Part shown: positions 1,559 through 32,488 of the stretch, piece by piece
How the letters are laid out: each line of letters starts with the position of its first letter
Numbering within the stretch: position 1 is the first letter of the stretch
Assembly: GCA_026993285.1 (NCBI GenBank)
Contig: JALWTZ010000003.1
Location: 1 to 32,488 of the forward strand
DNA: 32,488 nt
Direction of reading: 5' to 3'
Source: Lysobacterales bacterium
GTDB taxonomy: Bacteria > Pseudomonadota > Gammaproteobacteria > Xanthomonadales > S139-57
The notes under the pieces: generated by a model
Told to the model about the DNA's origin: nothing
Databases searched by the model: none
What the model saw: only the letters and a program-made list of their open reading frames with translations
Translations under genes and position numbers: made by a program

Positions 1559-1634
1559 GCCGGGGGGTTGTGTGGTTTGCAGGCAGCCTATCCTAGCATG
1601 TTCTTTTCCGTGACCAGTACGCCGTAATCAGCCG

Positions 1635-2063: not shown

Positions 2064-2093
2064 GAGCCGTAGCCTTTGATGTTTGGGAAAATA

Positions 2094-2690: not shown

Positions 2691-2700
2691 GTTCGCCTCC

Positions 2701-4029: not shown

Positions 4030-4071
4030 GGTTTCTGCCCCTCCAGTTCAATCACTTGTATTCGCGCCATC

Positions 4072-4095
4072 AAAAAAGGGGCCTTGCGGCCCCTT
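4072..4095 (-). terminator. Intrinsic terminator between rubrerythrin and the FeS oxidoreductase
   Basis: Minus strand AAGGGGCC-GCAA-GGCCCCTT then TTTT, 9 nt after the rbr stop. Confidence 0.75.
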
Positions 4096-4104
4096 GCCGG
4101 GCAC

Positions 4105-4524
4105 TCAGGCGTCCAGCGTATCCAGCGCTTTCTGGAACCGGTTGGCGTGGGAACGCTCCGCCTTGGCCAGTGTTTCGAACCAGTCGGCAATTTCGTCAAA
4201 CCCCTCGTCTCGGGCGGTCTTGGCCATGCCGGGGTACATATCGGTGTACTCGTGGGTTTCACCGGCAATGGCGGCTTTCAGGTTATCTGCCGTGCCACCG
4301 ATGGGCAGGCCGGTGGCCGGGTCACCCACTTCTTCCAGGTACTCCAGGTGACCGTGGGCATGGCCGGTTTCACCTTCGGCCGTGGAACGGAACACGGCAG
4401 CCACATCATTGTAACCTTCCACATCGGCCTTGGCGGCAAAGTAGAGGTAACGACGATTGGCCTGGGATTCGCCGGCAAAGGCGGCTTTCAGATTTTCTTC
4501 GGTTTTGGAACCTTTCAGAGACAT
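4105..4524 (-). CDS. rbr: Short rubrerythrin (no rubredoxin domain)
   Basis: [43 protein letters not shown] di-iron ligands; RBS GGAGG. Confidence 0.95.
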
Positions 4525-4705
4525 GAGTCTTCCTCCATTGATCGGGTGTGATTACGGGTGTGCACCAGCATTGAACCGGGCACGGCCCTGTGTTTCAGCC
4601 ACCGGGGAGGCGATCACGCAAGCGCGGAACACGCCATCCGCACGCCGTGTTCCACACGCTGTTCCACCCTCCCGGCAAATCACGGATTACGCGACTTGCC
4701 CAGAC

Positions 4706-4771
4706 ACTATAGGGACAGAATCAGCCAGAGAGAAATTGTTTGTTTCAATGAGTTTGATAGATCATGACTAT
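4706..4771 (-). promoter_or_regulatory. Putative OxyR box plus -10 element of the rbr promoter
   Basis: Minus strand ATAG-N7-CTAT-N7-ATTG-N7-CAAT (4771-4735), directly followed by a weak -35 TTCTCT, 17 nt, then TATAGT (4711-4706). Confidence 0.7.
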
Positions 4772-5160
4772 TGCATCAGCGCATGCCACAGCAAGGCCGC
4801 AGACAACAGGATGATGACCATCCAGGTCAACAGCGTGCCATAGAAGCGGCCGATGGTCTTGCCCGCATCCCGCTGCAGGCCGGAAGCATGCATCAGGCGC
4901 CCCAGCAACAACAGGCCGCCGGCAGCATACAGGCCGATGACCGGCAGGGCATGGTTGAGTTCCGCCATGCCCAGCAACAACAGGCTCATGGGCACATATT
5001 CGATGAAATTGGCATGCACCCGGATGGCTCGTGCCAGTTCTTCCTGCCCGCCATGGCCGATGCCCACCTGATACTTTCTGCGCAGGCCAACCACCTGCAT
5101 GGCCAGCCAGAGCATCAACAGGGCCAGCAGTGCGGTATAGATTCCGGTAATGGGTAACAT
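4768..5160 (-). CDS. MAPEG family membrane protein
   Basis: RAIRVHANFIEYVP and GRLMHASG motifs; four TM segments. Confidence 0.9.
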   Translation of the reverse strand: MLPITGIYTALLALLMLWLAMQVVGLRRKYQVGIGHGGQEELARAIRVHANFIEYVPMSLLLLGMAELNHALPVIGLYAAGGLLLLGRLMHASGLQRDAGKTIGRFYGTLLTWMVIILLSAALLWHALMQ

Positions 5161-5217
5161 GGTGCCTCTCCCGCGGGTTATTGGTGAACAACCGGTCAGC
5201 GGCTATCATGCAGCCCA

Positions 5218-5853
5218 ATGCCAAGCGAGCGCAAGCCGATGAAAACCGAATATGACCAGCTGACCCCCACTTTGCCGGAAAACTTTCAAGAATTGGGAGA
5301 AAACAGCTTCATCTTTGTGGTGGATGATGCCCTGCCGGAGATCTTCTGCGATGAGATGGTCCGCCGCTTCGAGGCGCATCCGGATGAGCAGTATCCGGGC
5401 CGTATCGGCCAGCAGGCGGTGGAGGAGCAGAGCATCAAGCGTTCCACCGACCTGGTGGTCAGCGGCAAGGCGCACTGGAAGGATATCGACCACGCCCTGT
5501 TTCGCTCCCTGGGGCTGGCCGTCAAGGCCTTTCGTGAGCGTTACCCCTTCTTCAGGGGCCGCTTCAAGGACGTGGGCTATGCCATCCAGCGCACGCAACC
5601 CGGCGAGTTCTACCACTGGCATATCGACGGCGGCTCGCACCAGTTCGCCGACCGGCAGCTGGTGGCCGTCTGGTACCTCAATGATGTGGAAGGCCCCGGA
5701 GGCGAGACGGAATTTCTCTACCAGAACATCAAGGTCAAGCCGCGCAAGGGCCGCCTGTTGCTGTTCCCGCCCTTCTGGACCCATGTACACCGGGGTGTGG
5801 AACTGCAGGCCGGGGTGAAATACATTGCCACCACCTGGCTGTCCTTTGCATAG
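5218..5853 (+). CDS. 2OG-Fe(II) oxygenase (prolyl-4-hydroxylase-like)
   Basis: YHWHID (HxD), WYLNDV..GGETEF, FPPFWTHVHRG, KYIATTW. Start may be ATG 5239. Confidence 0.88.
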   Translation: MPSERKPMKTEYDQLTPTLPENFQELGENSFIFVVDDALPEIFCDEMVRRFEAHPDEQYPGRIGQQAVEEQSIKRSTDLVVSGKAHWKDIDHALFRSLGLAVKAFRERYPFFRGRFKDVGYAIQRTQPGEFYHWHIDGGSHQFADRQLVAVWYLNDVEGPGGETEFLYQNIKVKPRKGRLLLFPPFWTHVHRGVELQAGVKYIATTWLSFA

Positions 5854-5858
5854 GCCTG

Positions 5859-6143
5859 CTACTGGTCTTCGTCCCGCAGCAGGGCCTTCAGCTGCTGAAA
5901 ACCCTCCAGTTCCAGCAGCAGGCGGTCCCTTTCGGAGCGGGCGATATCCGCCCAGTGCCTGCCTTGCAGCGCGCCCACCATGGCATAGAGAAAATTCAGG
6001 CTGACAGTGCCCTGTGCCCGCAGCTCAAGGAAGGCCTGTACCGGCCCGATCCGCTCCAGATCGGCCCGGGTATGGATGCCAATGGCATTCAGGGCCTTTT
6101 CCGATGCCGGGCCCAGCCCCTGCAATCTTGCCAGCTCTCCCAT
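5859..6143 (-). CDS. TfoX/Sxy C-terminal domain protein
   Basis: LQGLGPASEKAL.AIGI...DL..IG, SLNFLYAMVGALQGRHW. Confidence 0.85.
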   Translation of the reverse strand: MGELARLQGLGPASEKALNAIGIHTRADLERIGPVQAFLELRAQGTVSLNFLYAMVGALQGRHWADIARSERDRLLLELEGFQQLKALLRDEDQ

Positions 6144-6283
6144 GGCTTCCCCCGTTGAGTGCTCCCGGTTCGCGGCCTACCGCTTGCGGGCCATTGTAAA
6201 CGGCCTTCTCTCTTCCGTGCTATCCACCGGCCCGGCCGGGCATGCTATGTTTTCGCCTTTCCCTTGTGATGATGGAGTTCACC

Positions 6284-8131
6284 ATGCCGCCGCTGCGTTC
6301 CAATACCACCACCCAGGGCCGCAACATGGCCGGTGCGCGCGCCCTGTGGCGGGCCACCGGCGTGAAGGATGAGGAATTCGGCAAGCCCATCATTGCCGTG
6401 GTCAATTCCTACACCCAGTTCGTGCCCGGACATGTGCACCTGAAAAACCTGGGGGACCGGGTGGCCGATGCCATCCGCGAGGCCGGCGGCATCCCGCGGG
6501 AGTTCAACACCATCGCGGTGGATGACGGCATTGCCATGGGCCACGGCGGCATGCTCTATTCTCTGCCGTCCCGGGAGCTGATCGCCGATTCGGTGGAGTA
6601 CATGGTCAACGCCCACTGTGCCGATGCCATGGTCTGCATTTCCAACTGCGACAAGATCACCCCCGGCATGCTGATGGCCGCCATGCGGCTGAACATACCG
6701 GCGGTGTTCGTTTCCGGCGGGCCCATGGAAGCGGGCAAGACCCGCCTGGCCGACGGCGAGCACAAGCTGGACCTGGTGGATGCCATGGTGGCGGCGGTGA
6801 CCGATTCGGTCAGCGATGCCGACAGCGAGCGCATCGAGCGTTCCGCCTGCCCCACCTGCGGTTCCTGCTCCGGCATGTTTACCGCCAATTCCATGAACTG
6901 CCTGGCCGAGGCACTGGGGCTGGCCCTGCCGGGCAACGGCTCGCTGCTGGCCACCCATGCCGACCGCAAGGGGCTGTTCGAGCAGGCGGGCCGGCGGGTG
7001 GTGGAACTGTGCCGCCGCTGGTACGAACAGGAAGACACCCGTGCCCTGCCCCGTGGCATCGCCACCTTCGAGGCCTTTGAAAACGCCATGGCGCTGGATA
7101 TCGCCATGGGCGGCTCCACCAACACCGTGCTGCATCTGCTGGCCATCGCCCGCGAAGGGGAAGTGCCCTTCACCATGGCGGATATCGACCGGATGTCGCG
7201 CAAGGTGCCACACCTGTGCAAGGTGGCGCCATCCACACCGCTGTATCACATGGAAGATGTACACCGCGCCGGCGGGGTGATGGGCATTCTGGGCGAACTG
7301 CAGCGGGCCGGCCTGCTGCATGAAGATACCCCCACGGTGCACAGCGCCACCCTGGGCGAAGCCCTGCAACAGTGGGATATCCGGCAAACCACGGACGAAA
7401 GCGTGTTGCGCTTCTACCGGGCCGGGCCGGCGGGCATTCCCACCCAGGAGGCCTTCTCCCAGAACTGCCGCTGGGAAAGCCTGGACGACGACCGCGAAAC
7501 CGGCTGTATCCGCGACCTGGCCCATGCCTATTCCGCTGACGGTGGCCTGGCGGTACTGTTCGGCAACCTGGCCGAGAAAGGCTGCATCGTCAAGACCGCC
7601 GGCGTGGCCGAGAACTGCCTGCGGTTCACCGGCCGGGCCCGGATTTTCGAATCCCAGGAAGCGGCGGTGGAAGCCATACTGGGTGACCGGATCGAAGCCG
7701 GTGATGTGGTGCTGATCCGCTACGAGGGGCCGAAGGGTGGCCCCGGCATGCAGGAGATGCTCTATCCCACTTCCTACCTCAAGGCCAAGGGGCTGGGAGC
7801 GCAATGCGCCCTGATTACCGATGGCCGTTTCTCCGGCGGCACCTCCGGCCTTTCCATCGGCCATGTCTCGCCGGAAGCGGCCGCCGGCGGCACCATCGGC
7901 CTGGTGGAAGAAGGCGACCGCATCGAAATCGACATTCCCGCCCGTCGCATTCACCTGGCGGTAGCCGAGGACGAGCTGGCCCGGCGCCGGGCCGCCATGG
8001 AAGCCCGACCCCGCCCCTGGCAGCCAGAAAACCGCCAGCGCAGCGTGAGCCGGGCTCTGCAGGCCTACGCCCTGCTGGCCACTTCCGCCGACACCGGTGC
8101 CGTGCGCCGCCTGCCGGGCGAAGAGGCATGA
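6284..8131 (+). CDS. ilvD: Dihydroxy-acid dehydratase
   Basis: [52 protein letters not shown]. Start ATG 6284 after RBS GGAG. Confidence 0.98.
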
Positions 8132-9645
8132 GCACAGACCCGCAACTGCTGCACCGGCTGGTACGGGCCATTGGCCGGGCACGGGTCTACGATGTGGCCC
8201 ACCGCACCCCGCTGCAGCTGACCGAACTGCTCAGCCAGCGTTGTGACCAGCAGATCTTTCTCAAGCGGGAAGACCTGCAGCGCACCCATTCCTTCAAGTG
8301 CCGGGGCAGTTACAACCGCATCGTGCAACTGCCCCTGGGCACCAGCGGCGTAATCGCCGCATCCGCCGGCAACCATGCCCAGGGCGTGGCCCTGGGTGCC
8401 CGTGAACGGGGCCTGCCGGCCACCATCGTCATGCCGCGCACCACCCCGCGCATCAAGGTACAGGCAGTGGAACGCTACGGCCCGCATATCGTGCTCTTTG
8501 GCGACAATTTCGACCAGGCCAAGGCCCACGCCCTGAAACTGGCGCAGGAAAACGGCTGGCAGATGATCCACCCCTTCGATGATTTCGATGTCATCGCCGG
8601 CCAGGGCACAGTAGGCAAGGAGATTCTCGACGAGGAACCGGATGTGGATGTGGTCTTCGTACCCGTGGGTGGTGGCGGCCTGCTGGCCGGCGTGGCCGCC
8701 TGGATCAAACACCTGCACCCGGACTGCCGCATCGTGGCGGTGGAAGCGGAAGAATCCGCCTGCTTCGCCGCCGCCCGCGAAGCCGGCCAGCCGGTGGACC
8801 TCAACACCGTGGACAGCTTTGCCGACGGGGTGGCCGTCAAGCGCATCGGCGAGCTGGCCTTCTCCATCGCCAACCCGCTGGTGGACGAAGTGATTACCGT
8901 ATCCGCCGATGCCATCTGCGCCGCCATCAAGGCCGTGTATGAAAACACCCGCTCCATCGCCGAACCGGCCGGCGCGCTGGCCCTGGCCGGGCTGAAGCAA
9001 TGGGTGAAGCAGGCGCCGGAGCCCAACATGAAACTGGTGGCCCTGCTCAGCGGTGCCAACATCGACTTTCACAACCTGCGCTACATTTCCGAACGCACGG
9101 AACTGGGCGAGCACCGCGAAGCCCTGTTCGCGGTGACCATTCCGGAAAAACCCGGCGAATTTCTCAAGCTCAGCCGGGCCCTGCACGGGCGTAACATCAC
9201 CGAATTCAACTACCGCTACAACGACGACCGTGCCGCGCAGATTTTCATCGGCGTGCAAACCCCCGGCGGGCGCAAGGAAGGCCAGGCGGTGCATCAGGAA
9301 CTGGAACAGGCCGGCTACCCGGTGATGGACCTGAGCGACAACGAAACCGCCAAGCTGCACCTGCGCTATCTCATGGGCGGCCATGCCGCCAACAACGGTG
9401 AATACCTGTTTCGTTTTGAATTCCCGGAACGCCCCGGCGCGCTGATCCAGTTTCTCGAAGCGCTGGGCATGCGCTGGAACATCAGCCTGTTCCACTACCG
9501 CAACCATGGTGCGGCCATGGGGCGGGTACTGCTAGGTCTACAGGCACCGGAAGGGCAAAGGGAGGCACTGCTGGCCACCCTGACCCAGACGGGCTACCCC
9601 TTTGTGGACGAAAGCGAAAATCCGGCCTGTCGTTTGTTTCTCTGA
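8128..9645 (+). CDS. ilvA: Threonine ammonia-lyase, biosynthetic
   Basis: KREDLQ..HSFKCRG (PLP Lys), [10 protein letters not shown]-terminal regulatory repeats ([20 protein letters not shown]). ATG 8128 overlaps the ilvD stop. Confidence 0.96.
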
Positions 9646-9652
9646 AGAAGGG

Positions 9653-9683
9653 AAAAGCCGGCGGGGACAACTATCCCGCCGGC
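9653..9683. terminator. Hairpin between convergent genes
   Basis: GCCGGCGGG...CCCGCCGGC stem preceded by AAAA (a U-tract on the minus strand). Confidence 0.6.
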
Positions 9684-9695
9684 CCAGGCTGGCTG

Positions 9696-10169
9696 TCAGC
9701 GACGGCCGGACTCGGCACCCGGCCGGTTTGCTGCGGGTACGGCATCCACTGGCCTGACCAGAACTTCCAGGGAGAAGCGGGTGGATTCAGGTGTGTAACC
9801 ACCGATGGTGAGCGTAGCTTTCCGGTTCAGGAACGCGCCCAGTTGTACCGGTTCACCCTTCAAGCTGGATTGAGCGCCGGCAAGGATATCCAGCATCGCA
9901 TAAGGCTCTCCCTTTGGGCTCACTGCCAGCTCCGTAATGGTCAGCTGAACCTGATACAGGCGGGTGCCTTCACCATCCCGAAACGCAAGCTGCCCGGTCT
10001 TGCCCTCGGCCAGGGTCATGGCGGCATCGAAGGCCTTGCCTGCATCGTTGATGGCCAGCGCCACTTCAAAAAGCCGGGGCGAGGCTGCTTGGGCCGGGGT
10101 CAGGAAAAGGAACAGGGACAGAAGGGGCAGCAGAGCGCCTTCCTTTTTCATGCCTGGGTTTGAAAACAT
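9696..10169 (-). CDS. Hypothetical exported protein
   Basis: RBS GGAG, signal peptide ending AQA, beta-rich mature region; no family recognised. Confidence 0.6.
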   Translation of the reverse strand: MFSNPGMKKEGALLPLLSLFLFLTPAQAASPRLFEVALAINDAGKAFDAAMTLAEGKTGQLAFRDGEGTRLYQVQLTITELAVSPKGEPYAMLDILAGAQSSLKGEPVQLGAFLNRKATLTIGGYTPESTRFSLEVLVRPVDAVPAANRPGAESGRR

Positions 10170-10252
10170 ACCGATCTCCTTGGTTGTTGGGTTGGCAAAG
10201 GCAGGCTAGCTGTTTGCCGTCATGGTTTCAAGCCTGGGAAAAATGCCCTCGC

Positions 10253-10283
10253 AATAAAACCGGCAGGGCGCACACCCTGCCGG
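10253..10283 (-). terminator. Intrinsic terminator of the fibre cluster
   Basis: Minus strand CCGGCAGGGTG-TG-CGCCCTGCCGG-TTTTATT just after the stop at 10292. Confidence 0.75.
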
Positions 10284-10291
10284 ATGACTGC

Positions 10292-12274
10292 TCATGGGCA
10301 GGTATTGCCAAGGAATGTGGAAGATAAACCTTGCATGACCGCCGTACCGAAACATTGCGCCGTATAACCGGATGACACGCTGATTGCACTGGTGCTTTTC
10401 TTGTCAATCTGGCTATTGGTCATCTGAAAAAATTCATTCGCGCCCGAAGTTACCGTTCCATTCAAGGCAATACTGGCCAGAGACGAACTGCCGTTTTCCA
10501 CAACCGAATTGGATATTGACACATAATAATAATCACTGGGATTGTCCACTCGGATTGTCTCTGCATCAGAGGCATATACCTTTGAGAAAGCCATCTCCAG
10601 AGTGCTCTTCTGCAAGAGCATTACATTTGACTGCCCATTAACAGAAAAATCAGAATGCTTCATCGTAATGCGATCCAGATTTGCACTCTTTGACCAGATC
10701 CCAATTAGATAGGAATTAGGGGCACCGGCCGAAGTAGTCTTGAGACTGCTGTGATCAACGACCAGACTGCCGCCATCCAGCTCAATCGCTGTATAGTTCA
10801 CGGTTCCAGTAGCTCTATTAAGTTGATAGTAGGTGATATCAACATTATTCATTCTGGCTGTGTATCCACTGGAAAAGGACAATGTACTCAAGTTGGCTGT
10901 ACCACTGAAATCCCCCACATAAAAATTGATATAAAATGTCGAATTTTCTATAGCACAAAAACCACCATTACAGGCAATAGTCTTTCCAAAAGCGCCCGCG
11001 GAATCCACAGAATTGATTAAATAATCAAAAGCAATATTTCTAATATCAATATTTGCAGTTGAAGCCAGAAAAGATACTGTATTGTCAGCAGGATACCATT
11101 TAACAGACAAATCCTGAAATACCAGTTTGTTATTACCCATATTAATGACCTGCTGGCCGGAAGGGCTGGCTGGGGGATCAATGCGTGTGACATCCCTTCC
11201 CTGACCTCGGATTATCACTTTGTTTGATGCAAATACTGACAAATCAATACCCGATTGCATGGTAAATACCCCGGAACCCACATTGATGATGCAAACCGCC
11301 CCGGAACACCATTGCGCGTGATTCGTCACGGCATCTTCCAGCGAATTATATTGCCCGCCACCGCCTGCAAGGGTCACGCTTACCTGATCCGTCACCGTAC
11401 CCTGAATGCCCTGGCAGGTCACCGTTCCGTCCGCATTGACGACACGCACCGCATTGCCAGCCGCACAGCTACCACTCACCCGGCTCTGGATAGCGCTGGT
11501 ATCCACCGAAAGGGTGGCATTACCTGTCGTAGCCCCCCCCGAGAGACCACTGCCTGCAGTCACCGCAGTAATGTCACCCGCACCCACATTGGTGCAAGTT
11601 ACACTGCCATCCACTGCCACGGTAGTCATGGCCTGGCCTGCGGAGCAACCGCCACTCACCCGGCTCTGGATGGTGTTTGTATCCACATTCAGCGTGACAT
11701 CACCGCTGCTGGCACCCCCCGTCAAACCGGTGCCGGCAAATACCGAGGTAATATCGCCCGCGCCCACACTGGCGCAGCTTACCGTGCCATCTGCCGCCAC
11801 AGTGGTCATCGCCTGCCCGGCGGGGCAGGTCCCTGTTACGCGCAACTGTACTTCGTTGCTGTCTACATCCGCACTGCCGATGGCACTGGCCAGCATGGTG
11901 GCCTGCAGGGCGTACTGCGCCACCGGCGCGGCCCGCACGGGGGTGCGTGGCGTCAAGGCATAGGTATTGGCGCCATCATTGACGCTGATGGCCAGCCAGA
12001 CCTGATCGGTGTCGAAAATAAAGTTCAGATCCACATCCAGGCTGAACTGGCCGCCATTGACGGCCACATTGGGAAAATTCTGCGTGCTGCCCAGTTGGGT
12101 GCCGCCGGTCTCTGCATTCCAGGCTTCCAAGGTGAAGTTGTAATTGCCCGTGGGGTATTGGCCAGACAGTTGCAGCTTGCCCTGTACGGTAAACACACTG
12201 CCAATGGGCGTCTGGGCCTGTGCCACCGGCAAAAGCATGCAGAGTGAAAACAGTATGGAGAATAGGCGGTTCAT
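10292..12274 (-). CDS. Secreted fibre/adhesin-like protein with 60-aa Cys repeats and a C-terminal beta-helix-like head
   Basis: Start ATG 12274 (RBS GAGG), signal peptide AQA|Q. FTVQGKL N-domain and ~2.5 repeats. GGQYNSLEDAV..INVGSGVF..IIRGQGRDVTRI resembles the cap of a pectin-lyase-like beta-helix. Confidence 0.75.
   Translation of the reverse strand: MNRLFSILFSLCMLLPVAQAQTPIGSVFTVQGKLQLSGQYPTGNYNFTLEAWNAETGGTQLGSTQNFPNVAVNGGQFSLDVDLNFIFDTDQVWLAISVNDGANTYALTPRTPVRAAPVAQYALQATMLASAIGSADVDSNEVQLRVTGTCPAGQAMTTVAADGTVSCASVGAGDITSVFAGTGLTGGASSGDVTLNVDTNTIQSRVSGGCSAGQAMTTVAVDGSVTCTNVGAGDITAVTAGSGLSGGATTGNATLSVDTSAIQSRVSGSCAAGNAVRVVNADGTVTCQGIQGTVTDQVSVTLAGGGGQYNSLEDAVTNHAQWCSGAVCIINVGSGVFTMQSGIDLSVFASNKVIIRGQGRDVTRIDPPASPSGQQVINMGNNKLVFQDLSVKWYPADNTVSFLASTANIDIRNIAFDYLINSVDSAGAFGKTIACNGGFCAIENSTFYINFYVGDFSGTANLSTLSFSSGYTARMNNVDITYYQLNRATGTVNYTAIELDGGSLVVDHSSLKTTSAGAPNSYLIGIWSKSANLDRITMKHSDFSVNGQSNVMLLQKSTLEMAFSKVYASDAETIRVDNPSDYYYVSISNSVVENGSSSLASIALNGTVTSGANEFFQMTNSQIDKKSTSAISVSSGYTAQCFGTAVMQGLSSTFLGNTCP
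11415..11850 (-). repeat. 180-bp (60-aa) tandem repeat, about 2.5 copies
   Basis: CCACTCACCCGGCTCTGGAT at 11472 and 11652; protein unit QxRVxGxCxAGxAxxxVxxDGxVxC..GDITxVxAGxGL. Confidence 0.85.
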
Positions 12275-25377: not shown

Positions 25378-25409
25378 ACAGGCCAGTGTGACAATGCACT
25401 GGCCTGTTT
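25378..25409 (+). terminator. Hairpin terminator at the backbone/array junction
   Basis: ACAGGCCAGTG-N8-CACTGGCCTGT-TT, a perfect 11-bp stem. Confidence 0.65.
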
Positions 25410-25433
25410 GATGGATTGGTGTTGCGCTATGGC

Positions 25434-25511
25434 ATTTAGCCAGGCTACACAAGCAGCGTGGCTGAGAAGCGCCCTTTCCGCAAAGCGATTGACTTGGGTG
25501 ATTGATTATAT
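25434..25511 (-). repeat. Decayed attC-like site
   Basis: Minus strand ATATAAT-CAATC-ACCCAAG...CTTGTGT..GCTAAAT; both core boxes are mutated. Confidence 0.35.
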
Positions 25512-25856
25512 ATCGTCGTCATATATTTCACCGCCAACGGTATCACAAACAACCGTGTGACATTCAACGGTGAACCAGGCGTGGAATAGCTTCAAGGTCC
25601 GCGTTTTTGGCCACAAATCCGGATCCGTATACCAACCCTCCAGCTCTGTCTCGAAAAGCGCTTGCCAATTCCGTTTGATCCATCTATCCACTGCGTCTGG
25701 GCTGTCCGCATCCTGGTTGCTGATCAAATATACGGTGCATTCTTCATTCACAGACTCGATCGTGATTCCAGGATCGTTATTGCAGGGATCAGCACCATTA
25801 ATCCACTGAATGGCCGGTTCTTTGTACTTCAGGATTAAGGCAGCACGGTTTAACAC
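25506..25856 (-). CDS. Acidic hypothetical cassette protein
   Basis: RBS AGGA, GTG start; LNRAA..W..TVYLI..LFE.EL.GWYTD..LWP..F..WF pattern. Confidence 0.7.
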   Translation of the reverse strand: MLNRAALILKYKEPAIQWINGADPCNNDPGITIESVNEECTVYLISNQDADSPDAVDRWIKRNWQALFETELEGWYTDPDLWPKTRTLKLFHAWFTVECHTVVCDTVGGEIYDDDI

Positions 25857-25875
25857 GATGATTCCTGTTTAAGGT

Positions 25876-25964
25876 CGATAACGCCAGCAGTCACCCACCA
25901 CCATGGAGCGAAGGGTAGAGAAATCCCGGCTTTTCTGCGGTCGGCGTACAGTACATGATTAGCT
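25876..25964 (-). repeat. Partly degenerate attC
   Basis: R'' AGCTAAT (contains the VOC stop), R' GTTATCG, central TTCGCTCC motif; arm pairing is poor. Confidence 0.55.
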
Positions 25965-26417
25965 CTCCGCCTGCCAGTTCTGTAGTTCAATGATGTTTCC
26001 TTCAGGATCCGTAAGATACTGAAATGTCAGCATCCCCACACCGGGTATCTCTCGAACAGCAAGCTCACCGACCACAGATCCACCATGAGCCAAAACTTCC
26101 CGAGCCATCTCACGGACGTCATCAACCGCAAAGGCTATGTGTGAGAAACCAGGGGTATTCGGACTGATTGCAGGGTGCTGGGGCATGTCGCCATATTGGA
26201 ACAATTCCAGTGTCGGGCCATCATCTCCGTAACCCGGTAGTCGGAGATGTACGCCACGAATATGTGAACCCGCGATACCAGTTGCCTGATCGAGCCAGTC
26301 GCCGGACAGGTCACGCTCAGGTAGAACCGGAATACAACCGAACACCTCCTGGTAGAACGCCAACAGGCGTTTCCAATCTTTTGCTATCAGGTTCGTATGA
26401 ACATATTTGATTGCCAT
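25959..26417 (-). CDS. VOC/glyoxalase family protein
   Basis: YVHTNL..FY..VFG, TLELFQY, GFSHIAFAVDD, YLTDPEGNIIEL. Start ATG 26417. Confidence 0.9.
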   Translation of the reverse strand: MAIKYVHTNLIAKDWKRLLAFYQEVFGCIPVLPERDLSGDWLDQATGIAGSHIRGVHLRLPGYGDDGPTLELFQYGDMPQHPAISPNTPGFSHIAFAVDDVREMAREVLAHGGSVVGELAVREIPGVGMLTFQYLTDPEGNIIELQNWQAES

Positions 26418-26424
26418 AGTAGCA

Positions 26425-26499
26425 TCCTCACGTAGCGCTAACCGGATGCCGAAGGAGCGCCAGCGACTGAGGCAGTCCGAGCCAAGCGCCTTGTTCGAC
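26425..26499 (-). repeat. attC with a mutated R' (GTGAGGA)
   Basis: GTCGAAC-AAGGC-GCTTGGC-TCGGACTGCC...GGCATCCG-GTTAGC-GCTAC-GTGAGGA. Confidence 0.8.
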
Positions 26500-26500
26500 A

Positions 26501-26794
26501 CTATTTCCGTTTGAGACCTAATATTGGATGCCTTCGCTGGTGTTTTACTACGGTTATTCTCAGCAGGTCCTTGTTCACTATCCGAAAATACACCACGTAT
26601 GGAAATCTGCGTAATAATGCCCTGCGAACACCATGCTCAACCTCCACCCATTGAAGTGGATTTGATGCAATGTTTAGTACTTGCCTCTCAAATTCATTTA
26701 GAAATTCATTACCAAGCCCAGTGTAACAATTATTATGATACCGGATAATTTCTCGAAGTTCCGCTTCTACTGCTGGGTGATACTCAATCCTCAT
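26501..26794 (-). CDS. RelE/ParE family toxin
   Basis: YHPAVEAEL.EI..Y..GLG.EF, RRALLRRFPYVVYF, V.HQRRHP. Confidence 0.88.
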   Translation of the reverse strand: MRIEYHPAVEAELREIIRYHNNCYTGLGNEFLNEFERQVLNIASNPLQWVEVEHGVRRALLRRFPYVVYFRIVNKDLLRITVVKHQRRHPILGLKRK

Positions 26795-27017
26795 CCCTAC
26801 GTAACCTGTCCATTAATTCTTTATGCGTTATCGGAATTTCTTTTCCACTTTCTATTTCAGCGTCTCTTTGTGTCGCTAGCTTAACTGCATCTTCATCGCT
26901 TATATCCAGTCCAACAGCATAAGAGTCTTCCAGGCTTTCCCATATAGTTTCCGCGAGAAGAGCTCTGTCTTTCGGGTCTAGGCGAAGCGCTTCACTTGCT
27001 ATCTGATCTATATTCAT
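26784..27017 (-). CDS. Addiction-module antitoxin
   Basis: AL.L.PKDRALLAETIWESL...R.AEIESGK pattern; overlaps the toxin start by 11 nt. Confidence 0.85.
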   Translation of the reverse strand: MNIDQIASEALRLDPKDRALLAETIWESLEDSYAVGLDISDEDAVKLATQRDAEIESGKEIPITHKELMDRLRRDED

Positions 27018-27043
27018 ATGAACTTCTCCTATCTATATTAATT

Positions 27044-27124
27044 GTCGAACGCTTGCCATAACTGGTCCCAAATCACGGAGCGCAGCGAAGTGTTTTGGGT
27101 TCCGTGTTTATGGCCTTGTTAGGC
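27044..27124 (-). repeat. attC site (81 bp)
   Basis: R'' GCCTAAC, GCCATAAAC/GTTATGGC arms, CCCAAA/TTTGGG stem, R' GTTCGAC. Confidence 0.9.
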
Positions 27125-27930
27125 TAAATCCAACGCCCCCAGCCTTGTGGTATCTGTATTTGTAACATTGCATGTTGAAGAGTAAAAGCATCTTTAAAAT
27201 AGTCAGAGGCCAGTACTAGACCTTTTGATATAGAAACATCCTCTATAATTGAATTCCACATTTGCATTTGTTCTACATATCGTATTTGACTAATTTCCGC
27301 CCAATATGGATGATTACAGTAATTAGCTACACAATGCTTGCAACCATATACAAAATGCACAGTATTGGCATCATCAATGTAAAAACCTGCCAAAGACCAT
27401 GGAATATTTTCTTGCGTCAGTATATCCTTATCGCAACTTTCACCCTTGCATATTAGCGGCTTATAGTCTGTTCCTTCTACAATATGATGGTATAGTTTCT
27501 GGGGAGCATTAAAGTACTTCTGTAAGGTATAACCACGCATTGTTGGAATTATATCCAATACATCATCAAGATAAATTTCAATAACGTCAATGCCTTTTTG
27601 TTGCAAGGCATACAGTTTCTTTTTTAGGCCGCTTGTTGCTCCTACAGAATAGAACGCAATAAAACCATTGCAGTCATGTTGCTCTACTCGATCTCTAATA
27701 TCTGATTCTTGTCTAACCCCAACATTTTTTTTTGATTTATATGGGTGCTTACAACTTACGAGATATTTGTAATTTTCTTCGTTCCTTTTGATTTCAACTA
27801 TAAGATCCATTCCTTCATCTACACCTTCTGAAGGCCCCACAACAACCGAAAACCCAAGATGGAAAAGGACATCCTGAGCAAACCATTCCCACTTTTTGGG
27901 GGTAAGTTCATAAATATGGTCTTGATACAT
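27124..27930 (-). CDS. Mrr-like restriction endonuclease domain protein
   Basis: WE.FA.DVL..LGF, DEGMDLIV, LVSCKH (PD-(D/E)xK variant); C-terminal CxxxxC and CxxC. Confidence 0.7.
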   Translation of the reverse strand: MYQDHIYELTPKKWEWFAQDVLFHLGFSVVVGPSEGVDEGMDLIVEIKRNEENYKYLVSCKHPYKSKKNVGVRQESDIRDRVEQHDCNGFIAFYSVGATSGLKKKLYALQQKGIDVIEIYLDDVLDIIPTMRGYTLQKYFNAPQKLYHHIVEGTDYKPLICKGESCDKDILTQENIPWSLAGFYIDDANTVHFVYGCKHCVANYCNHPYWAEISQIRYVEQMQMWNSIIEDVSISKGLVLASDYFKDAFTLQHAMLQIQIPQGWGRWI

Positions 27931-27953
27931 GGTTTCTATGTTTTTCTCCTATA

Positions 27954-28052
27954 GCCTAACGCCTCACATCACCGGCAGCAAAAATCGGTGTGGCTGGAGC
28001 GGAGCGGAAGCCGCGCCGATTTTTGCTGTCCGAGTGCATGTGTTTGTTAGCG
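27954..28052 (-). repeat. attC site (99 bp)
   Basis: R'' CGCTAAC, long stem CAGCAAAAATCGG/CCGATTTTTGCTG, R' GTTAGGC. Confidence 0.92.
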
Positions 28053-28056
28053 AATT

Positions 28057-28755
28057 CTAAGCTGAAAACAAGAATAACGGCATCAATAACGCAACTACCA
28101 TCATCAATACGTCAACAGGAGTGATACCTTCATTTAGACTACCCTCACCTCGAATACTTGTGACGTTCTTTATCTCTACTGCGTCTGCATATGTTCTTGT
28201 AAACCGAATAACACTAGCCTCCAAGCTGATCAAAAACGGTACAGCATTTACGATTGGAGACAACCCCTTGTTGCGATAAGCATCTCTTGTTTCTGCCACT
28301 AACCTTCGCAAAGAGTACAGTGTCCGACCGAACCCTATAATGGCCGCACCAACGCCTCCTCCAAAGATATTTGACCAAAAATAGTAGTGCTGCATTACCG
28401 TTGAATTCCCAAACAGAATAACTGGAGATGAGAACAGAATGATTACCTGGAGCGCGAAAATAATATTATCATCGGTAATACTTTTTTGAGCATGAAGGGT
28501 TAAAATAACTTCACCAACTATGATCGCAACAATTATCAATGATAAAAATAGAGAAATTTTATTTACTGTTCGTCCAAACACAGCGATAACAATCAGTATG
28601 GTCAAATACACTACACAATCCGAAATGCTATTTGCCCACAAAACAGTCCAGAAAGCAGTCAACATTACATATTTAACAAGCGGTGTTGAAAGCGCCAATA
28701 TTGTACTTTGTTTTAGATCAAATTCCTTTTCTATCTGCTTAATTAGCTGCTGCAT
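28057..28755 (-). CDS. ECF transporter T-component-like membrane protein
   Basis: Several TM segments; RDAYRNKGL and YADAVEIKN sit where EcfT carries its two xARG motifs. Confidence 0.6.
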   Translation of the reverse strand: MQQLIKQIEKEFDLKQSTILALSTPLVKYVMLTAFWTVLWANSISDCVVYLTILIVIAVFGRTVNKISLFLSLIIVAIIVGEVILTLHAQKSITDDNIIFALQVIILFSSPVILFGNSTVMQHYYFWSNIFGGGVGAAIIGFGRTLYSLRRLVAETRDAYRNKGLSPIVNAVPFLISLEASVIRFTRTYADAVEIKNVTSIRGEGSLNEGITPVDVLMMVVALLMPLFLFSA

Positions 28756-28769
28756 TGTTACATACTCTC

Positions 28770-30170
28770 CTACAATCGAATTTCTTGAGTCGACAGCCTA
28801 GAAAACAACTCAGGTGTATGAGTGGCTACGACTATTGTGGAACCATTGTTTAAGTAATGTTGAATCAATTCATATACCGACCGTCTCTGATTCCAGTCTA
28901 AACATATGACAGGCTCATCCACGAATAGCACTGCTGGATAAACCAAGAAAGACAATAGCGACACTATTTTTTGCTGTCCAAAAGAAAGAGTAAGAGGGTC
29001 GCTTTCAAGATTAATGCCGAATGGCTTTAGTGCTCTTAAAGCAACATCTTGAACAGAATCGAATGATATTTTCATTGCCCTGTGTATAGACGTCATCTCA
29101 CGTTCTACTGTGTCTTCAGAAAATTGAAGACTGGGTATCTGCTGAATGTATGCTATATCAGATGGCAGTTTCGGCAATGTTGACCGATAGTCAGATCCAC
29201 GAAAGGAAATGCGCCCCTGATATTTTCTATGGAGAGTGCTTAGCATCTTAAAAAGAGTGGTTTTACCCGCTCCATTCTTTCCTGTTACCGTTACCAACTC
29301 GCCTTCTCTGATAGAAATATTTAATCCTGAAAATACAGTTGCCTCTGGTTGAGAATAATATGGTCCTAACAAATTCCCTTCTAGTAGTACATCTCCAGTT
29401 GTGTTGTTGTTCCTATCAACTGTCGGTGCGCTTCCTGTATAGAATTTCGCTTTAGCCTCCCCTAAAGTACTATATTCGTTTATGGTGCCATCATCGATGA
29501 CGAAGAACCTGTTTGGAGATGCTAGTTCAAATGCTTCTGGCTCATGGGTAGTGACCGCAGCAATACACTCTGGCTTGATCTTGCGATACGCAATCAAGGT
29601 CTCTATGAACTGCTGTTTATTACCACAGTCTAGCAACGCAGTTGGTTCATCAAAAAATAAATAATCTGGCGACTTTATAAATGAAGAAACAAGAGAAACC
29701 AACTGCTTAGTCCCTTCACTTAATTCGTCTATCTTGGAATGAAGCAGGTTATTGATCCCGTAATCATGCGCAAGTTTACTGATCCTTATAAATGCCTCTC
29801 TAGGTTCCAAGTTAGCAAGTCGGGCTGACAACAAAAATTCTTCAATTACGGATGTTGTAATAAAATTGTGATCAGGATATTGAAATATAACACTTGAACG
29901 CCCCCAGTAATTGCTGCAAATACGCTTGCTTTCTCTAGTGATATAATTACCATTAACACTCAGTTGACCGCTAAAGCTTGCTGACTTAAATCTGCTTAAA
30001 CATTGGATAGCACCACACAAGCTCAACAAAAGTGTTGTTTTTCCAATTCCATTCTTTCCCAAAAACAAAGCGAGGTCGCCGGGCTCAAGAGACAACTTAC
30101 TGGCCCGCAAGATGTTCTCTTCGTTGTCGTAACCAACACCATCGAATTCAAGCTTTATTCCAGCTTCCAT
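28770..30170 (-). CDS. Double-domain ECF-type ABC ATPase
   Basis: Two Walker A (GKNGIGKT, GKNGAGKT), EcfA-like Q-loop FQYPDHNF..SV.EE, signatures LSEG and LSFGQ, Walker B DEPT and DEPV, two H-loops. Confidence 0.88.
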   Translation of the reverse strand: MEAGIKLEFDGVGYDNEENILRASKLSLEPGDLALFLGKNGIGKTTLLLSLCGAIQCLSRFKSASFSGQLSVNGNYITRESKRICSNYWGRSSVIFQYPDHNFITTSVIEEFLLSARLANLEPREAFIRISKLAHDYGINNLLHSKIDELSEGTKQLVSLVSSFIKSPDYLFFDEPTALLDCGNKQQFIETLIAYRKIKPECIAAVTTHEPEAFELASPNRFFVIDDGTINEYSTLGEAKAKFYTGSAPTVDRNNNTTGDVLLEGNLLGPYYSQPEATVFSGLNISIREGELVTVTGKNGAGKTTLFKMLSTLHRKYQGRISFRGSDYRSTLPKLPSDIAYIQQIPSLQFSEDTVEREMTSIHRAMKISFDSVQDVALRALKPFGINLESDPLTLSFGQQKIVSLLSFLVYPAVLFVDEPVICLDWNQRRSVYELIQHYLNNGSTIVVATHTPELFSRLSTQEIRL

Positions 30171-30175
30171 GACAC

Positions 30176-30763
30176 TCAGTCTCCTGTAACGGAAAAATCA
30201 CGCGCAAGTTTTTTCATTCTCGGCGCAGTCTTTATTGCAAAATAAATGGAAATAAACCCCTCAATGACAAACACCGCTGTTATTGCGACAACAGCCTTAA
30301 CAGTAATATCAAATCCAGGCAACTTTAACCAATGCAGTAAAGCTAAAAACATAGCCATCATAACGGTAGTGTACAGAACAAACCCTATATACAACCCTCT
30401 ATTACTTCCCCTCGATAAATAAACTATGGCATCAAATACCAACCCTGCACTTACCCCTATAAGAACCTTGTAAGGTCCAGGAGGCCCCATTAAAAGTGTT
30501 GGGATAGCAGCCACCGAATAGAGGGTCCACATCACAGTAAATGTGCCATAACCTCTTGTAATCAAGAATGTGAGTGCGAGAAAGAACGGTACGGTAAAGC
30601 CTGTTACAATACCTGACAACCCAGGTATTGCGAAAATAGCAGATAAAGCTTGCCCGGAAACAAAATTAAGTACGTAAAGAAGAGCCGTATTTACTCCAGC
30701 CAACATCATGGCTCTTGGGTGTCTAGTAATTAGATTGCATTTTAAGTCTTTTGGATTACTCAT
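30176..30763 (-). CDS. ECF S-component-like membrane protein
   Basis: About 195 aa with 5-6 TM segments, G.FT..., AGLVFD; adjacent to the ECF ATPase and T genes. Confidence 0.6.
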   Translation of the reverse strand: MSNPKDLKCNLITRHPRAMMLAGVNTALLYVLNFVSGQALSAIFAIPGLSGIVTGFTVPFFLALTFLITRGYGTFTVMWTLYSVAAIPTLLMGPPGPYKVLIGVSAGLVFDAIVYLSRGSNRGLYIGFVLYTTVMMAMFLALLHWLKLPGFDITVKAVVAITAVFVIEGFISIYFAIKTAPRMKKLARDFSVTGD

Positions 30764-30774
30764 TGCTCCCGTCC

Positions 30775-31563
30775 TTATATAGCTGGTGATATTCTATATG
30801 CGCTTTGACATATATGCTCATTGCCATAAAATGAAGTCTCTATATCGGTGCATGACACGTCTGGAAATAGAGCATTAGAAACAAGCAATGCGCCGCCGAG
30901 AGTTTCTAGTATTGGCGCGTCTGATAATCGCGGATTGCCGCCATATCGAATAACGCAATCAACGCCATCAAGCATTTGTATATTTATATTTTTCCTGGCT
31001 AACTTTAAGTTTCTTGTTCCAGAGTAACCTAATAATATATTTAACTTTTTTATTTTATTTTGTTTTTTATTCGTTGCATGGACAAGAACATTGGCAAGTT
31101 TTCTTGTTTTATCAGGAAGGCCGCAAGTATCTCCAATAACTTCCACAACGCAATCCGTCAGATCCATTGATACAATTCGTTCCAGAAATTTATCAAGAGC
31201 ATTAAATATAGGATTTAGTTCGCCGTGCGATCTATAAAGGGTATGTTCTCCTATCAAATAAAAAGTAAATGTACGTACGTGGCCGCAACGAAGAAATGCT
31301 TCAACAAAAGTCAGTCCATTCGAGCTTGCAATATCGTACGCACAATCATAAGACACGCCATTCAACCTAGCCCAACGGCGATGACCATCTGGTATCAGCA
31401 TTATATGCTTGGGTTCAGGAATAATATTGACACTGATTGGCATTAGTTTTGGCTCGATTACTCCATGAGCAGAGCTTGATTCAGCCAGTGCTTCGCCGCC
31501 TCTTAGCGAAGGAACCAAATTGTTTGGTTTCAATATGGCGTTTTCTGAATCTACGAAATGCAT
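30775..31563 (-). CDS. Divergent cis-prenyltransferase (UppS-fold) protein
   Basis: PKHIMLIPDGHRRWA, LNILLGYSG, VDCVIRYGGNPRLS, LFPDV. Start may be ATG 31443. Confidence 0.85.
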   Translation of the reverse strand: MHFVDSENAILKPNNLVPSLRGGEALAESSSAHGVIEPKLMPISVNIIPEPKHIMLIPDGHRRWARLNGVSYDCAYDIASSNGLTFVEAFLRCGHVRTFTFYLIGEHTLYRSHGELNPIFNALDKFLERIVSMDLTDCVVEVIGDTCGLPDKTRKLANVLVHATNKKQNKIKKLNILLGYSGTRNLKLARKNINIQMLDGVDCVIRYGGNPRLSDAPILETLGGALLVSNALFPDVSCTDIETSFYGNEHICQSAYRISPAI

Positions 31564-31605
31564 AATTTATCTACCATCTTTGTTTTCTCGGCTCGCCCAT
31601 GTCTT

Positions 31606-31669
31606 CGCTAACGACTGGGCTCAGGGGCGTGCAGCGAAGCGGAGCGTCCCTTGCAGCCCTTTGTTATGT
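31606..31669 (-). repeat. attC site (64 bp)
   Basis: R'' ACATAAC (contains the stop), GGGCTGCAAGGGACGC/GCCCCTGAGCCC arms, R' GTTAGCG. Confidence 0.9.
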
Positions 31670-32284
31670 GTTGCTATAATCATCAAGCCAACTGGTGATA
31701 TGATGAATGACCTCCGGTATTGGCAATTCATCAATAGAATCGTGCCCATCTTCTTCAACAGCTTTATTGTAGAGATAAGCGTTAAAATCATTGAAACTCT
31801 GCCAAATCCCGTTTGCACTTGGACCTGTATTCAACTCTTCAGTTACTAGCCAATCTCTAACGGCTTTTGTTAGCTTCAATGGATCATCATCATGATTCTT
31901 AATATCAGAGCCTGATAAATCAGATAGCGCCGCTTGATACCTATACCTCTCTTTCTCAAGTATTAATATACGCTTATCTTTCCACTGTCCATCTTTTAGC
32001 TTTTGACATCCATAATCTATGCCTAACTCAAATGGCATATTCATTCGGTAGTATTCGTTTTCATTTTCCGAAACAATTCGTGACAAGTCATGAATTCCGA
32101 ATTTTGACGCTAGAATGAGTTGTAGAATTTTATCGATTCGAGTTTCACCGGAATCAGAACGCTCAAGAGATAATCTAGGGTTAAACCCTAGATACTTTAC
32201 CACAAAGATTACTGCAATCAATAGCTGCCGGTAATCGTCATCAAATGGACAATTGACGAAGATATTTTTATTAAACTCATCCAT
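31664..32284 (-). CDS. TIR/nucleoside-2-deoxyribosyltransferase-like protein
   Basis: IFVNCPFD, RIDKI..I..SKFGIHDLS, NMPFELG (conserved Glu), SDLSG.DI..H. Confidence 0.6.
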   Translation of the reverse strand: MDEFNKNIFVNCPFDDDYRQLLIAVIFVVKYLGFNPRLSLERSDSGETRIDKILQLILASKFGIHDLSRIVSENENEYYRMNMPFELGIDYGCQKLKDGQWKDKRILILEKERYRYQAALSDLSGSDIKNHDDDPLKLTKAVRDWLVTEELNTGPSANGIWQSFNDFNAYLYNKAVEEDGHDSIDELPIPEVIHHITSWLDDYSNT

Positions 32285-32287
32285 GAA

Positions 32288-32488
32288 TTACCTCTTGTCT
32301 TTAGGAGGGTAAGGGTCTTTCCCATAACTATCTTTAGCCCGAATTCTCCCATCTTTTCCATGAATGTAGAATTCTGCCTTCTGATTCTTCGCCACTTCCC
32401 TCCCATAATTAATTGCTTCTTGCTGTGTATCAAAGTGTTTAGATGCTCTTGATGCTCCTCCTTTTTTAACATCCCAACCACCTTTTGA
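32288..32488 (-). CDS. DUF2188 family protein (5' end outside the window; missed by the ORF track)
   Basis: Manual translation: ...SKGGWDVKKGGASRASKHFDTQQEAINYGREVAKNQKAEFYIHGKDGRIRAKDSYGKDPYPPKDKR*. Confidence 0.88.
   Translation of the reverse strand, partial: SKGGWDVKKGGASRASKHFDTQQEAINYGREVAKNQKAEFYIHGKDGRIRAKDSYGKDPYPPKDKR

Follow-up and report, generated by a model that had tools for sequence, protein, structure and literature searches.

The window analysed here, namely the whole 32,488-bp contig JALWTZ010000003.1 of a Lysobacterales bacterium (assembly GCA_026993285.1; 2.55 Mb, 463 contigs, 96% complete), ends in an array of integron cassettes, and one of these, as read from its recombination sites, is a single attC-bounded unit of 3,652 bp with a four-gene operon (Table 1). 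Its first gene encodes a divergent enzyme of the cis-prenyltransferase fold (P1), and the other three encode what appears to be an energy-coupling factor (ECF) transporter, composed of an S component (P2), a fused double ATP-binding cassette (ABC) ATPase (A-A'; P3) and a probable T component (P4). Homology searches indicate that this S-AA'-T module is a rare operon family, in which 10 of the 11 S genes with a scorable upstream neighbour are directly preceded by a gene for an enzyme acting on prenyl diphosphates. Vitamins and metals are the known imports of ECF transporters. The novelty lies in the coupling of such an enzyme to an ECF module, together with the unusually large size of the cassettes; group-I ECF transporters, cis-prenyltransferases and integron cassettes are themselves known kinds. 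An earlier reading of this DNA, made from sequence only, knew of no described system with this gene set, and a search of the full-text literature agrees with it, since no published description of a prenyl enzyme joined to an ECF system was found there, although most subscription journals lie outside the coverage and the search is no proof. Taken as a whole, a cassette carrying an isoprenoid-linked ECF module is the explanation that we favour, and we hold it to be slightly better than an even proposition.

The enzyme gene that precedes S

Scans with alignments of the S protein returned two loci in species-representative genomes, 11 in JGI metagenome contigs and one more (L047) by a phylum scan; a scan of viral contigs (alignment A3) returned no relative, which says nothing either way. 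L012 and L013 were counted with L007, as they encode the same proteins save for a 98.7%-identical T in L013. This gives 13 distinct loci including the window, 11 of which are scorable, the contigs of L011 and L018 ending ahead of the upstream gene. Directly upstream of S, five of the 11 encode a cis-prenyltransferase (PF01255), namely the window, L010 (96 bits), L014 (73 bits), L016 (83 bits) and L009, the last as a C-terminal fragment 34% identical to P1. A trans-polyprenyl synthetase (PF00348, 98.7 bits) takes this place in L008, a class II terpene cyclase-like protein of about 290 aa in four loci (L007, L015, L017 and L019), and a protein of another kind in the remaining one. The company of prenyltransferase and ECF genes that the earlier reading had described for this cassette is thus found elsewhere.

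The profile of the cyclase-like family matches drimenol synthase (9mhs) in its cyclase half, at E 7.6e-8, and also AstC (E 0.088); its invariant DVDTT aligns on the catalytic DLDTT, and the features assigned by the Protein Atlas agree (AstC-like_C, SQHop_cyclase_C). Like the class II sesquiterpene cyclases of the AstC/drimenol-synthase type (PDB 9mhs, 22ty), these proteins therefore have a cyclase domain with the DxDTT acid motif; unlike them, they consist of the cyclase domain only and are encoded in an operon with an ECF module. The match spans only residues 300-435 of the 526-residue drimenol synthase chain, and the haloacid dehalogenase (HAD) phosphatase half is missing, so that the product would keep its diphosphate. 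Judged by homology, the cis-, trans- and cyclase-like classes are unrelated to each other, and each binds and converts a prenyl diphosphate.

The order of the genes is constant. In most loci, the enzyme gene either overlaps the S gene by 4-11 nt or is separated from it by 1-11 nt, with a 46-nt gap in L016. Wherever the locus extends far enough, S is followed by a gene for a fused double ATPase and then by a T-like gene. Among 21 S proteins placed in a tree, the trans-linked and the cyclase-linked ones each form a clade (100/99 in both cases), and the window falls within a cis-linked clade (87/93), L014 and L016 being long, unplaced branches. The S family is scarce: it was found in one of 401 genomes of the window's phylum (the window's own), in one of 401 of the phylum of L007 (again itself) and in two of 401 of the phylum of L008.

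Table 1. Features of the cassette and of its flanking recombination sites in the window (GC, G+C fraction)
Feature	Position	Strand	Description
attC of preceding cassette	31606..31669	-	R'' ACATAAC 31669-31663; R' GTTAGCG 31612-31606
Cassette	27960..31611	-	3,652 bp, four genes; GC about 0.40 (host part of the contig: about 0.60-0.65)
P1	30775..31563	-	262 aa; divergent cis-prenyltransferase-fold enzyme; PF01255
P2	30176..30763	-	195 aa, six helices; predicted ECF S component of a new subfamily near Trep_Strep/YkoE
P3	28770..30170	-	466 aa; fused A-A' double ABC ATPase
P4	28057..28755	-	232 aa; very divergent; probable T (EcfT/CbiQ-like) scaffold
Own attC of cassette	27954..28054	-	R'' TTCGCTAAC 28054-28046; R' GTTAGGC 27960-27954; unit ends with G27960

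That P1 is a divergent cis-prenyltransferase, as the sequence-only reading proposed, is borne out by its score of 63.9 bits against PF01255 (cut-off 27), the best stretch covering profile positions 1-136 of 219. The NCBIfam equivalogs for undecaprenyl pyrophosphate synthase (UPPS) score only 16-55 bits on P1, all far below their cut-offs of 109-425, and the best solved relatives in a PDB search are the UPPS of C. jejuni and MM_0014 of Methanosarcina (E about 1e-8). A HMMER search of 1.84 billion representatives returned 725 matches at E ≤ 0.001, 43 at ≤ 1e-10 and two at ≤ 1e-30, these two being P1 and a cluster 45% identical to it, which is the sole cluster above 40% identity; a word-based search agrees (2 proteins out of 556 candidates). 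The database version of P1 starts at M41 and has 222 aa. The longer start is favoured here, since residues 28-50 are also conserved in P0002. Divergence is much faster in the enzyme than in S, with 45% vs 80% identity to relatives presumed to lie on one 3,961-bp contig; the pairing of P0002 with P0009 (3,961 bp), like that of P0005 with P0010 (3,647 bp), is presumed solely from equal longest-contig sizes.

P1 carries the motifs DGHRRWA, IRYGGNPRLSD, GEHTL and RLSDAP. In an alignment that includes the host's UppS (A7), its residues D59, R63, R111, R206, R212 and S214 are invariant, and the Gly and four Arg are found in all members; we take these invariant residues to correspond to D26, G27, R30, R77, R194, R200 and S202 of E. 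coli UPPS. P1 should, on these grounds, still bind prenyl diphosphates. The host's own uppS is an ordinary gene beside cdsA on another contig (283 bits), with DGNGRWA, SSENWQRP, RLSNFLLWQ and RFG in its product, and the retention of this normal gene makes P1 an extra enzyme. Compared with canonical UPPS, P1 has DGHRRWA for DGN(G/R)RWA, His for the Asn of 'SENW' and RLSDAP for RxSNFLLWQ, a 50-aa N-terminal extension and a gene adjoining an ECF module. It is thus not a standard UPPS but an enzyme of the same fold, probably with a different acceptor or product. With the PF01255 family P1 shares the fold, the catalytic Asp and the diphosphate-binding Arg and Ser residues, and with the atypical member MM_0014 (PDB 7caq) also the lack of the C-terminal RXG. 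According to work on MM_0014, close relatives of that enzyme are also devoid of RXG, and the loss is tied to a looser acceptor site and to acceptors without pyrophosphate (PMC8131916). The divergent clade to which P1 belongs, with His for Asn and no RXG, is a candidate for non-canonical prenyl chemistry.

The transporter genes

A complete ECF transporter had been proposed from the letters of the sequence, and this proposal holds for the S fold of P2 and the fused double ATPase of P3, with a weaker case for P4. Thirteen relatives of P2 were found. An AlphaFold2 (AF2) model built from the alignment of the relatives has six helices, a pLDDT of 84.1 and a pTM of 0.81, and a Foldseek search of the PDB with this model places ECF S components at ranks 1-10 and 12, the best being 5edl (E 3.2e-3, TM 0.62). 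The VIA search, which is independent of Foldseek and covers 48,161 chains, agrees: 5edl is again first (Z 14.1; root-mean-square deviation 3.8 over 174 residues), and ranks 1-14 are all S components (4hzu_S 13.3, 4huq_S 12.9, and so on down to CbiM at 8.2), whereas rank 50 has a Z of 5.0. The fold neighbours are the vitamin-type S components YkoE, RibU, ThiT, FolT and PanT. At the level of sequence, P2 itself scores 12.6 bits against Trep_Strep (PF09605; cut-off 28.7, E 0.13), and PF09605 is matched by four of the 13 family members (best E 5.9e-9), the YkoE-type ABC_cobalt being weakly matched by three. The modelled fold thus identifies P2 as the S component of a new ECF subfamily. The invariant motifs of this family, PGLSG and LMGPPGxYK, lie in loops predicted to face outward.

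P3 matches PF00005 twice (143 bits), and both halves have an intact Walker A, a Walker B with its Glu, and an H-loop. Its top NCBIfam matches are ECF_ATPase_2 (161.7 bits) and ECF_ATPase_1 (160.4 bits), which are the best of all rows and nevertheless below their cut-offs of 330 and 315.

P4 has five homologues and is very probably the T component, a view suggested by its features, its position and a profile link that passes through one intermediate. Specifically, 26 of its 30 feature matches in the Protein Atlas belong to the CbiQ set, and its gene sits after that of A-A', as do the equivalents in the related loci. In a wider alignment of the P4 family that includes these equivalents (A5), two helices end in motifs of the Arg/Lys-Gly type, canonical in some relatives (AQKARG, ALRTRG) and degenerate in P4 (AYRNKG, AVEIKN). 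Searched against the 506 open reading frames (ORFs) of all fetched loci, the A5 profile finds its own family and only one other protein, that of L047 (L047_T; E 8.1e-5), which Pfam identifies as a true CbiQ (71.3 bits). Aligned by hhalign with nine real CbiQ proteins plus L047_T, A5 gives a P of 0.006 over 67 columns that span both coupling-helix motifs, as compared with 0.47-0.75 for three controls; when L047_T is left out, P is 0.03. Profile searches of the PDB with A2, A1 and A5 returned no ECF chain, two of them having no rows at all and A5 only chance rows of P-type ATPases (E 0.2). Predictions of the complex of S, A-A' and T scored 0.67, 0.64 and 0.71, with 0.00 and 0.00 for controls in which a partner was replaced and 0.51 for one in which chain 2 was replaced, and were counted neither way.

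L047 (4885-9833) deserves mention in its own right: its T component is a canonical CbiQ and bridges the divergent T family to CbiQ. The 752-aa protein that occupies its enzyme slot was guessed by eye to contain a diadenylate-cyclase domain, which Pfam did not support.

The operon of YkoEDC, a group-I ECF transporter, encodes a dedicated S, a fused A-A' ATPase and a T. The window module resembles it in the order of these three genes, in an S of about 190 aa with six helices whose top fold match is the YkoE structure 5EDL, and in being self-contained, not shared with other S components. The host genome has no match to PF02361 (CbiQ), a family that scores above cut-off in 15 of 61 sampled genomes of its phylum, and the module therefore brings its own T and is self-sufficient. 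It differs from YkoEDC in that its S lies below Pfam and NCBIfam recognition, its T is far from CbiQ, the module family goes together with an isoprenoid enzyme, and neither vitamin-pathway genes nor a riboswitch context were seen. With four genes, no further parts and a host devoid of another ECF scaffold, the system is a compact and testable case.

How enzyme and transporter may work together

Three unrelated enzyme folds in one fixed operon slot, beside a single S-AA'-T lineage and over a deep divergence, make a functional link between enzyme and transporter very likely. The contrary view, that an accessory prenyltransferase and an unrelated transporter share one cassette by chance, has nothing specific in its favour; it is contradicted by an adjacency that is kept, with genes that overlap or nearly abut, across S proteins only 30-40% identical and across three or more host backgrounds, and we give it practically no credence. 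Since a cyclase transfers nothing to an acceptor, the common denominator of the slot is prenyl-diphosphate chemistry itself. The pattern of homologies accordingly leads us to expect, with some confidence, that enzyme and transporter act on the same molecule derived from a prenyl diphosphate.

As for the mechanism, our tentative choice, which we place somewhat short of an even chance, is product handling; i.e., the ECF module would move a prenyl diphosphate made by the enzyme, or a derivative thereof. This choice is favoured by the biosynthetic-looking genes that accompany some of the operons (see below). P1 would convert the farnesyl and isopentenyl diphosphates of the host into a non-housekeeping prenyl diphosphate. 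This lipid, or a dephosphorylated or tailored form of it, would be bound within the membrane by the S component, and ATP hydrolysis by A-A', acting via T, would topple S and so carry the lipid across or out of the membrane. The cassette would then be a plug-in module to make and place or export an isoprenoid lipid, and not a vitamin importer. Whether the module further represents a new functional class of ECF transporters, with an isoprenoid diphosphate-derived lipid as its ligand, is more doubtful: it could be the first ECF system to export or flip a lipid, spread as a multi-gene integron cassette to supply an unusual terpenoid or polyprenyl lipid, e.g., for envelope remodelling or for chemical or anti-phage defence. 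If true, a rare, deep-branching S/AA'/T lineage coupled to three non-homologous prenyl-diphosphate enzymes would widen the substrate range of ECF transporters to isoprenoids.

A strong rival, though less likely than product handling, is import followed by conversion, which comes close to the proposal of the sequence-only reading. Here the ECF module would take up an external small molecule that the enzyme then consumes or traps in the cytoplasm; this molecule would serve as the prenyl acceptor, or would itself be a prenyl phosphate or precursor from outside. Uptake has precedent throughout the ECF family, the fold of P2 is nearest to vitamin-type S components, and the conserved motifs of S are predicted to lie in outward-facing loops. 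Likewise, the ECF-linked cis-prenyltransferases have no RXG, a loss that the work on MM_0014 links to pyrophosphate-free acceptors (PMC8131916). However, the same slot holds a cyclase-like protein in four loci and a chain-elongating trans-synthetase in one, and neither as a rule prenylates foreign acceptors. Furthermore, there is no kinase to activate an imported prenol, prenyl diphosphates are improbable as nutrients, and the genes that accompany some of the operons look biosynthetic. Among the latter are a gene of the geranylgeranyl-reductase family 0.5 kb upstream of the L014 operon (TIGR02032, 131 bits, cut-off 158.8) and a methyltransferase gene in L007 (see below), which give these loci the appearance, by annotation, of small terpenoid or polyprenoid biosynthetic clusters. 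The suggestion of the sequence-only reading that an imported molecule is prenylated consequently finds no specific support: it fits the cis-prenyltransferase variants, especially as these have no RXG, but not the cyclase-like or chain-elongating ones.

Several observations weigh against the product-handling mechanism or, more broadly, against an isoprenoid-linked ECF module. To our knowledge, all ECF transporters characterised so far import water-soluble micronutrients, and we know of none with a lipid or export function; the outward-facing motifs predicted for P2 would also fit classical uptake. The His of GEHTL at the Asn position of 'SENW', together with the missing RXG (both read from A7), makes the chemistry of P1, and even its activity, uncertain. 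In L047, whose S is about 30% identical and which is the most distant of the loci, the protein in the enzyme slot has no recognisable isoprenoid domain, and the agreement between S clades and enzyme classes elsewhere could reflect vertical co-inheritance. P3 is not clearly ECF-specific as far as its sequence goes, its ECF_ATPase scores being only about 10 bits above those of FtsE and DrrA, and its top PDB matches are generic tandem ABC proteins. P4 belongs to no Pfam or NCBIfam family, and Pfam searches up to E 10 with five members of its family gave chance rows only; the hhalign P, at only 0.006, makes for a weak membership in the T family; and, whereas P2 was modelled as an S fold in keeping with the earlier expectation that the membrane proteins would model as ECF S and T folds, the AF2 model of P4 from five sequences failed (pLDDT 45.4). 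Lastly, no sigma-70-like promoter was predicted upstream of P1.

A role in conflict with phages would be compatible with either direction of transport: the isoprenoid might block infection, or the precursor of the lipid carrier might be depleted upon infection. Such a role finds some encouragement in the neighbours. The window array contains an Mrr_cat nuclease and ParE/antitoxin cassettes, and the L008 operon (4378-12154 of a Planctomycetota metagenome-assembled genome) has a tyrosine integrase on one side and a full-length Gabija GajA (425 bits) on the other, a setting that resembles a defence island. The L014 operon, for its part, comes after a type IV restriction-like helicase (178 bits) and a HIT protein. 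Integron cassettes are reported to carry phage defence (bioRxiv 10.1101/2024.07.02.601719), and the faster divergence of the enzyme relative to S would be in line with such a role. Against it, PADLOC-DB 2.0 assigns no family to P1, P2 or P4 and only generic ABC-like ATPase models to P3; the neighbours in L010 and L018 are non-defence genes; and integrons and genomic islands gather accessory genes of all sorts. Among the neighbour proteins submitted to PADLOC, only GajA of L008 and the helicase of L014 were matched, and eight of 10 were without a match. We regard a defence role as improbable.

Even less probable, and by our estimate to be given little weight, is protection against antibiotics that sequester lipid-carrier intermediates, as in bacitracin resistance loci, where extra polyprenyl diphosphate would be combined with an ABC system. 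Resistance functions are frequent on cassettes, P1 is a member of the UPPS family, BceA is among the ABC matches of P3, and a gene for a PAP2 phosphatase is found close to the operon of L010. However, the cyclase-like and trans-synthetase variants are unsuited to lipid-carrier supply, the ABC system has an ECF S component in place of any Bce- or Bcr-type permease, P1 departs from UPPS at the Asn and RXG positions, and the PAP2 gene, just past the operon of L010, is encoded on the other strand at a distance of about 700 bp.

The cassette, its array and its relatives

The limits of the unit follow from its recombination sites. The sequence GTTAGCGAA (31612-31604, minus strand) is the exact 9-nt reverse complement of TTCGCTAAC in the R'' of the unit's own attC, the 5' boundary is the crossover point G31612|T31611, and the R' closes the unit, which thus runs from T31611 to G27960. 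The next cassette obeys the same rule of complementarity between start and R'', with GTTAGGCTA at 27960 and TAGCCTAAC ending at 27118. The coordinates, the 9-nt complement, the size and the gaps of 11, 5 and 14 bp between the four ORFs given by the sequence-only reading were all recovered. On its bottom strand, the own, downstream attC folds into a 99-nt bulged hairpin (-32.1 kcal/mol, z -7.1, none of 200 shuffles being as good) with three single-base bulges and a 20-nt inverted repeat that is 90% complementary. The attC of the preceding cassette is short; its R boxes are paired in the centroid fold, which is, however, weak (z -0.87).

That the unit is a single cassette, as had been claimed, is upheld by two further lines of evidence. 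Firstly, a scan of 25400-32488 for AAC…GTT pairs with at least five of seven complementary R-box positions yielded 120 candidates; on the minus strand, the two real attCs came out on top (28052-27954, then 27124-27044), and the candidates inside the unit are not credible, having poor energies, few paired ends and positions within ORFs. Secondly, Logan contigs of the metagenome run X2, which is independent and comes from a different study than run X1, the probable source, cover 28040-29092, 29090-29329 and 29317-31608 with 40, 8 and 98 differences, respectively (about 96% identity), and end at both attC cores, the upstream break falling at 31608/31609. In X1, the contig depth of the attC at 27955-28050 is roughly threefold that of its flanks, and this attC runs on into at least two groups of different sequences, with others in X2, as is expected for a recombination site common to many cassettes; the same type of attC is therefore, as read from these contigs, attached to several other cassettes in the X1 and X2 samples. 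Horizontal acquisition of the cassette is indicated by its GC of about 0.40 in a host of about 0.62, together with the absence of the S family from the 400 other genomes sampled within the phylum.

A typical integron cassette holds one ORF in about 0.5-1 kb. The window cassette resembles the known multi-gene cassettes (toxin-antitoxin and reported defence cassettes) in being bounded by attC, in lying in a like-oriented array, in its paucity of promoters and in its foreign composition. It differs from them in having four genes in 3.65 kb and, as cargo, an enzyme together with a complete machine for membrane transport. The L007 operon, too, forms an integron cassette, which is larger still, with six genes in 5,246 bp (1568-6813) that encode, in this order, the cyclase-like protein, S, A-A', T, a 317-aa membrane protein and a UbiE/MenG-like methyltransferase; the 317-aa protein has no PDB match and belongs to no known family. 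The boundaries of this unit are set by R' GTTATAT at 1567-1573 and by its own attC, with R'' CATATAAC at 6727-6734 and GTT at 6813 (fold z -3.46), and single-gene cassettes with similar repeats come after it. Integron cassettes would thus be able to mobilise whole membrane machines (3.65 kb here, 5.25 kb in L007). The default distance for clustering attC sites in IntegronFinder is 4 kb, and the attC sites of L007 lie farther apart than this, so that such cassettes may be split or missed in surveys.

The remainder of the window, from position 1 to about 25,400, has a GC of 0.55-0.67 and dense, overlapping ORFs, and looks like a GC-rich chromosome, whereas GC drops to 0.38-0.48 between about 25,450 and the contig end. 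Between 32488 and about 25506, all ORFs are minus-strand and have attC-like sites between them, as in a like-oriented array, and the cargo comprises DUF2188 plus a 206-aa protein, the four-gene unit, the Mrr_cat protein, an antitoxin/ParE pair, a glyoxalase-family protein and a 116-aa protein, a content that is, by annotation, typical of a chromosomal cassette array. No match to the integron integrase model TIGR02249 above cut-off was found across the 463-contig assembly; the array runs off the contig at 32488, and the integron head (integrase and attI) is therefore not visible. The joins across the attC repeats rest on the assembly.

Within the array, GC follows a gradient. The cassettes nearest to the chromosome (25.5-26.5 kb; the 116-aa and glyoxalase-family proteins) have a GC of 0.48-0.55, near that of the host, and the outer ones 0.38-0.42; the former may be older, ameliorated acquisitions or may stem from another pool. 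The product of the single-gene cassette at 27124-27930 has 268 aa, with an Mrr_cat restriction-endonuclease domain (26 bits) at the N-terminus and a C-terminal half rich in Cys and His, and had no match in PADLOC. The preceding cassette (31664-32488) carries two abutting genes, for DUF2188 (86 bits) and for the 206-aa protein of no family. In X2, the stretch corresponding to 31609-32488 is found on a separate contig that is 88% identical, with a mean word depth of 274.5 vs 8.1 for the ECF cassette. Finally, the four-gene operon of L010, on a contig of 26% GC, is flanked by direct repeats of about 100 bp (21-126 and 4011-4116), which are 78-97% identical in blocks, lie 3,990 bp apart and may represent another kind of insertion boundary.

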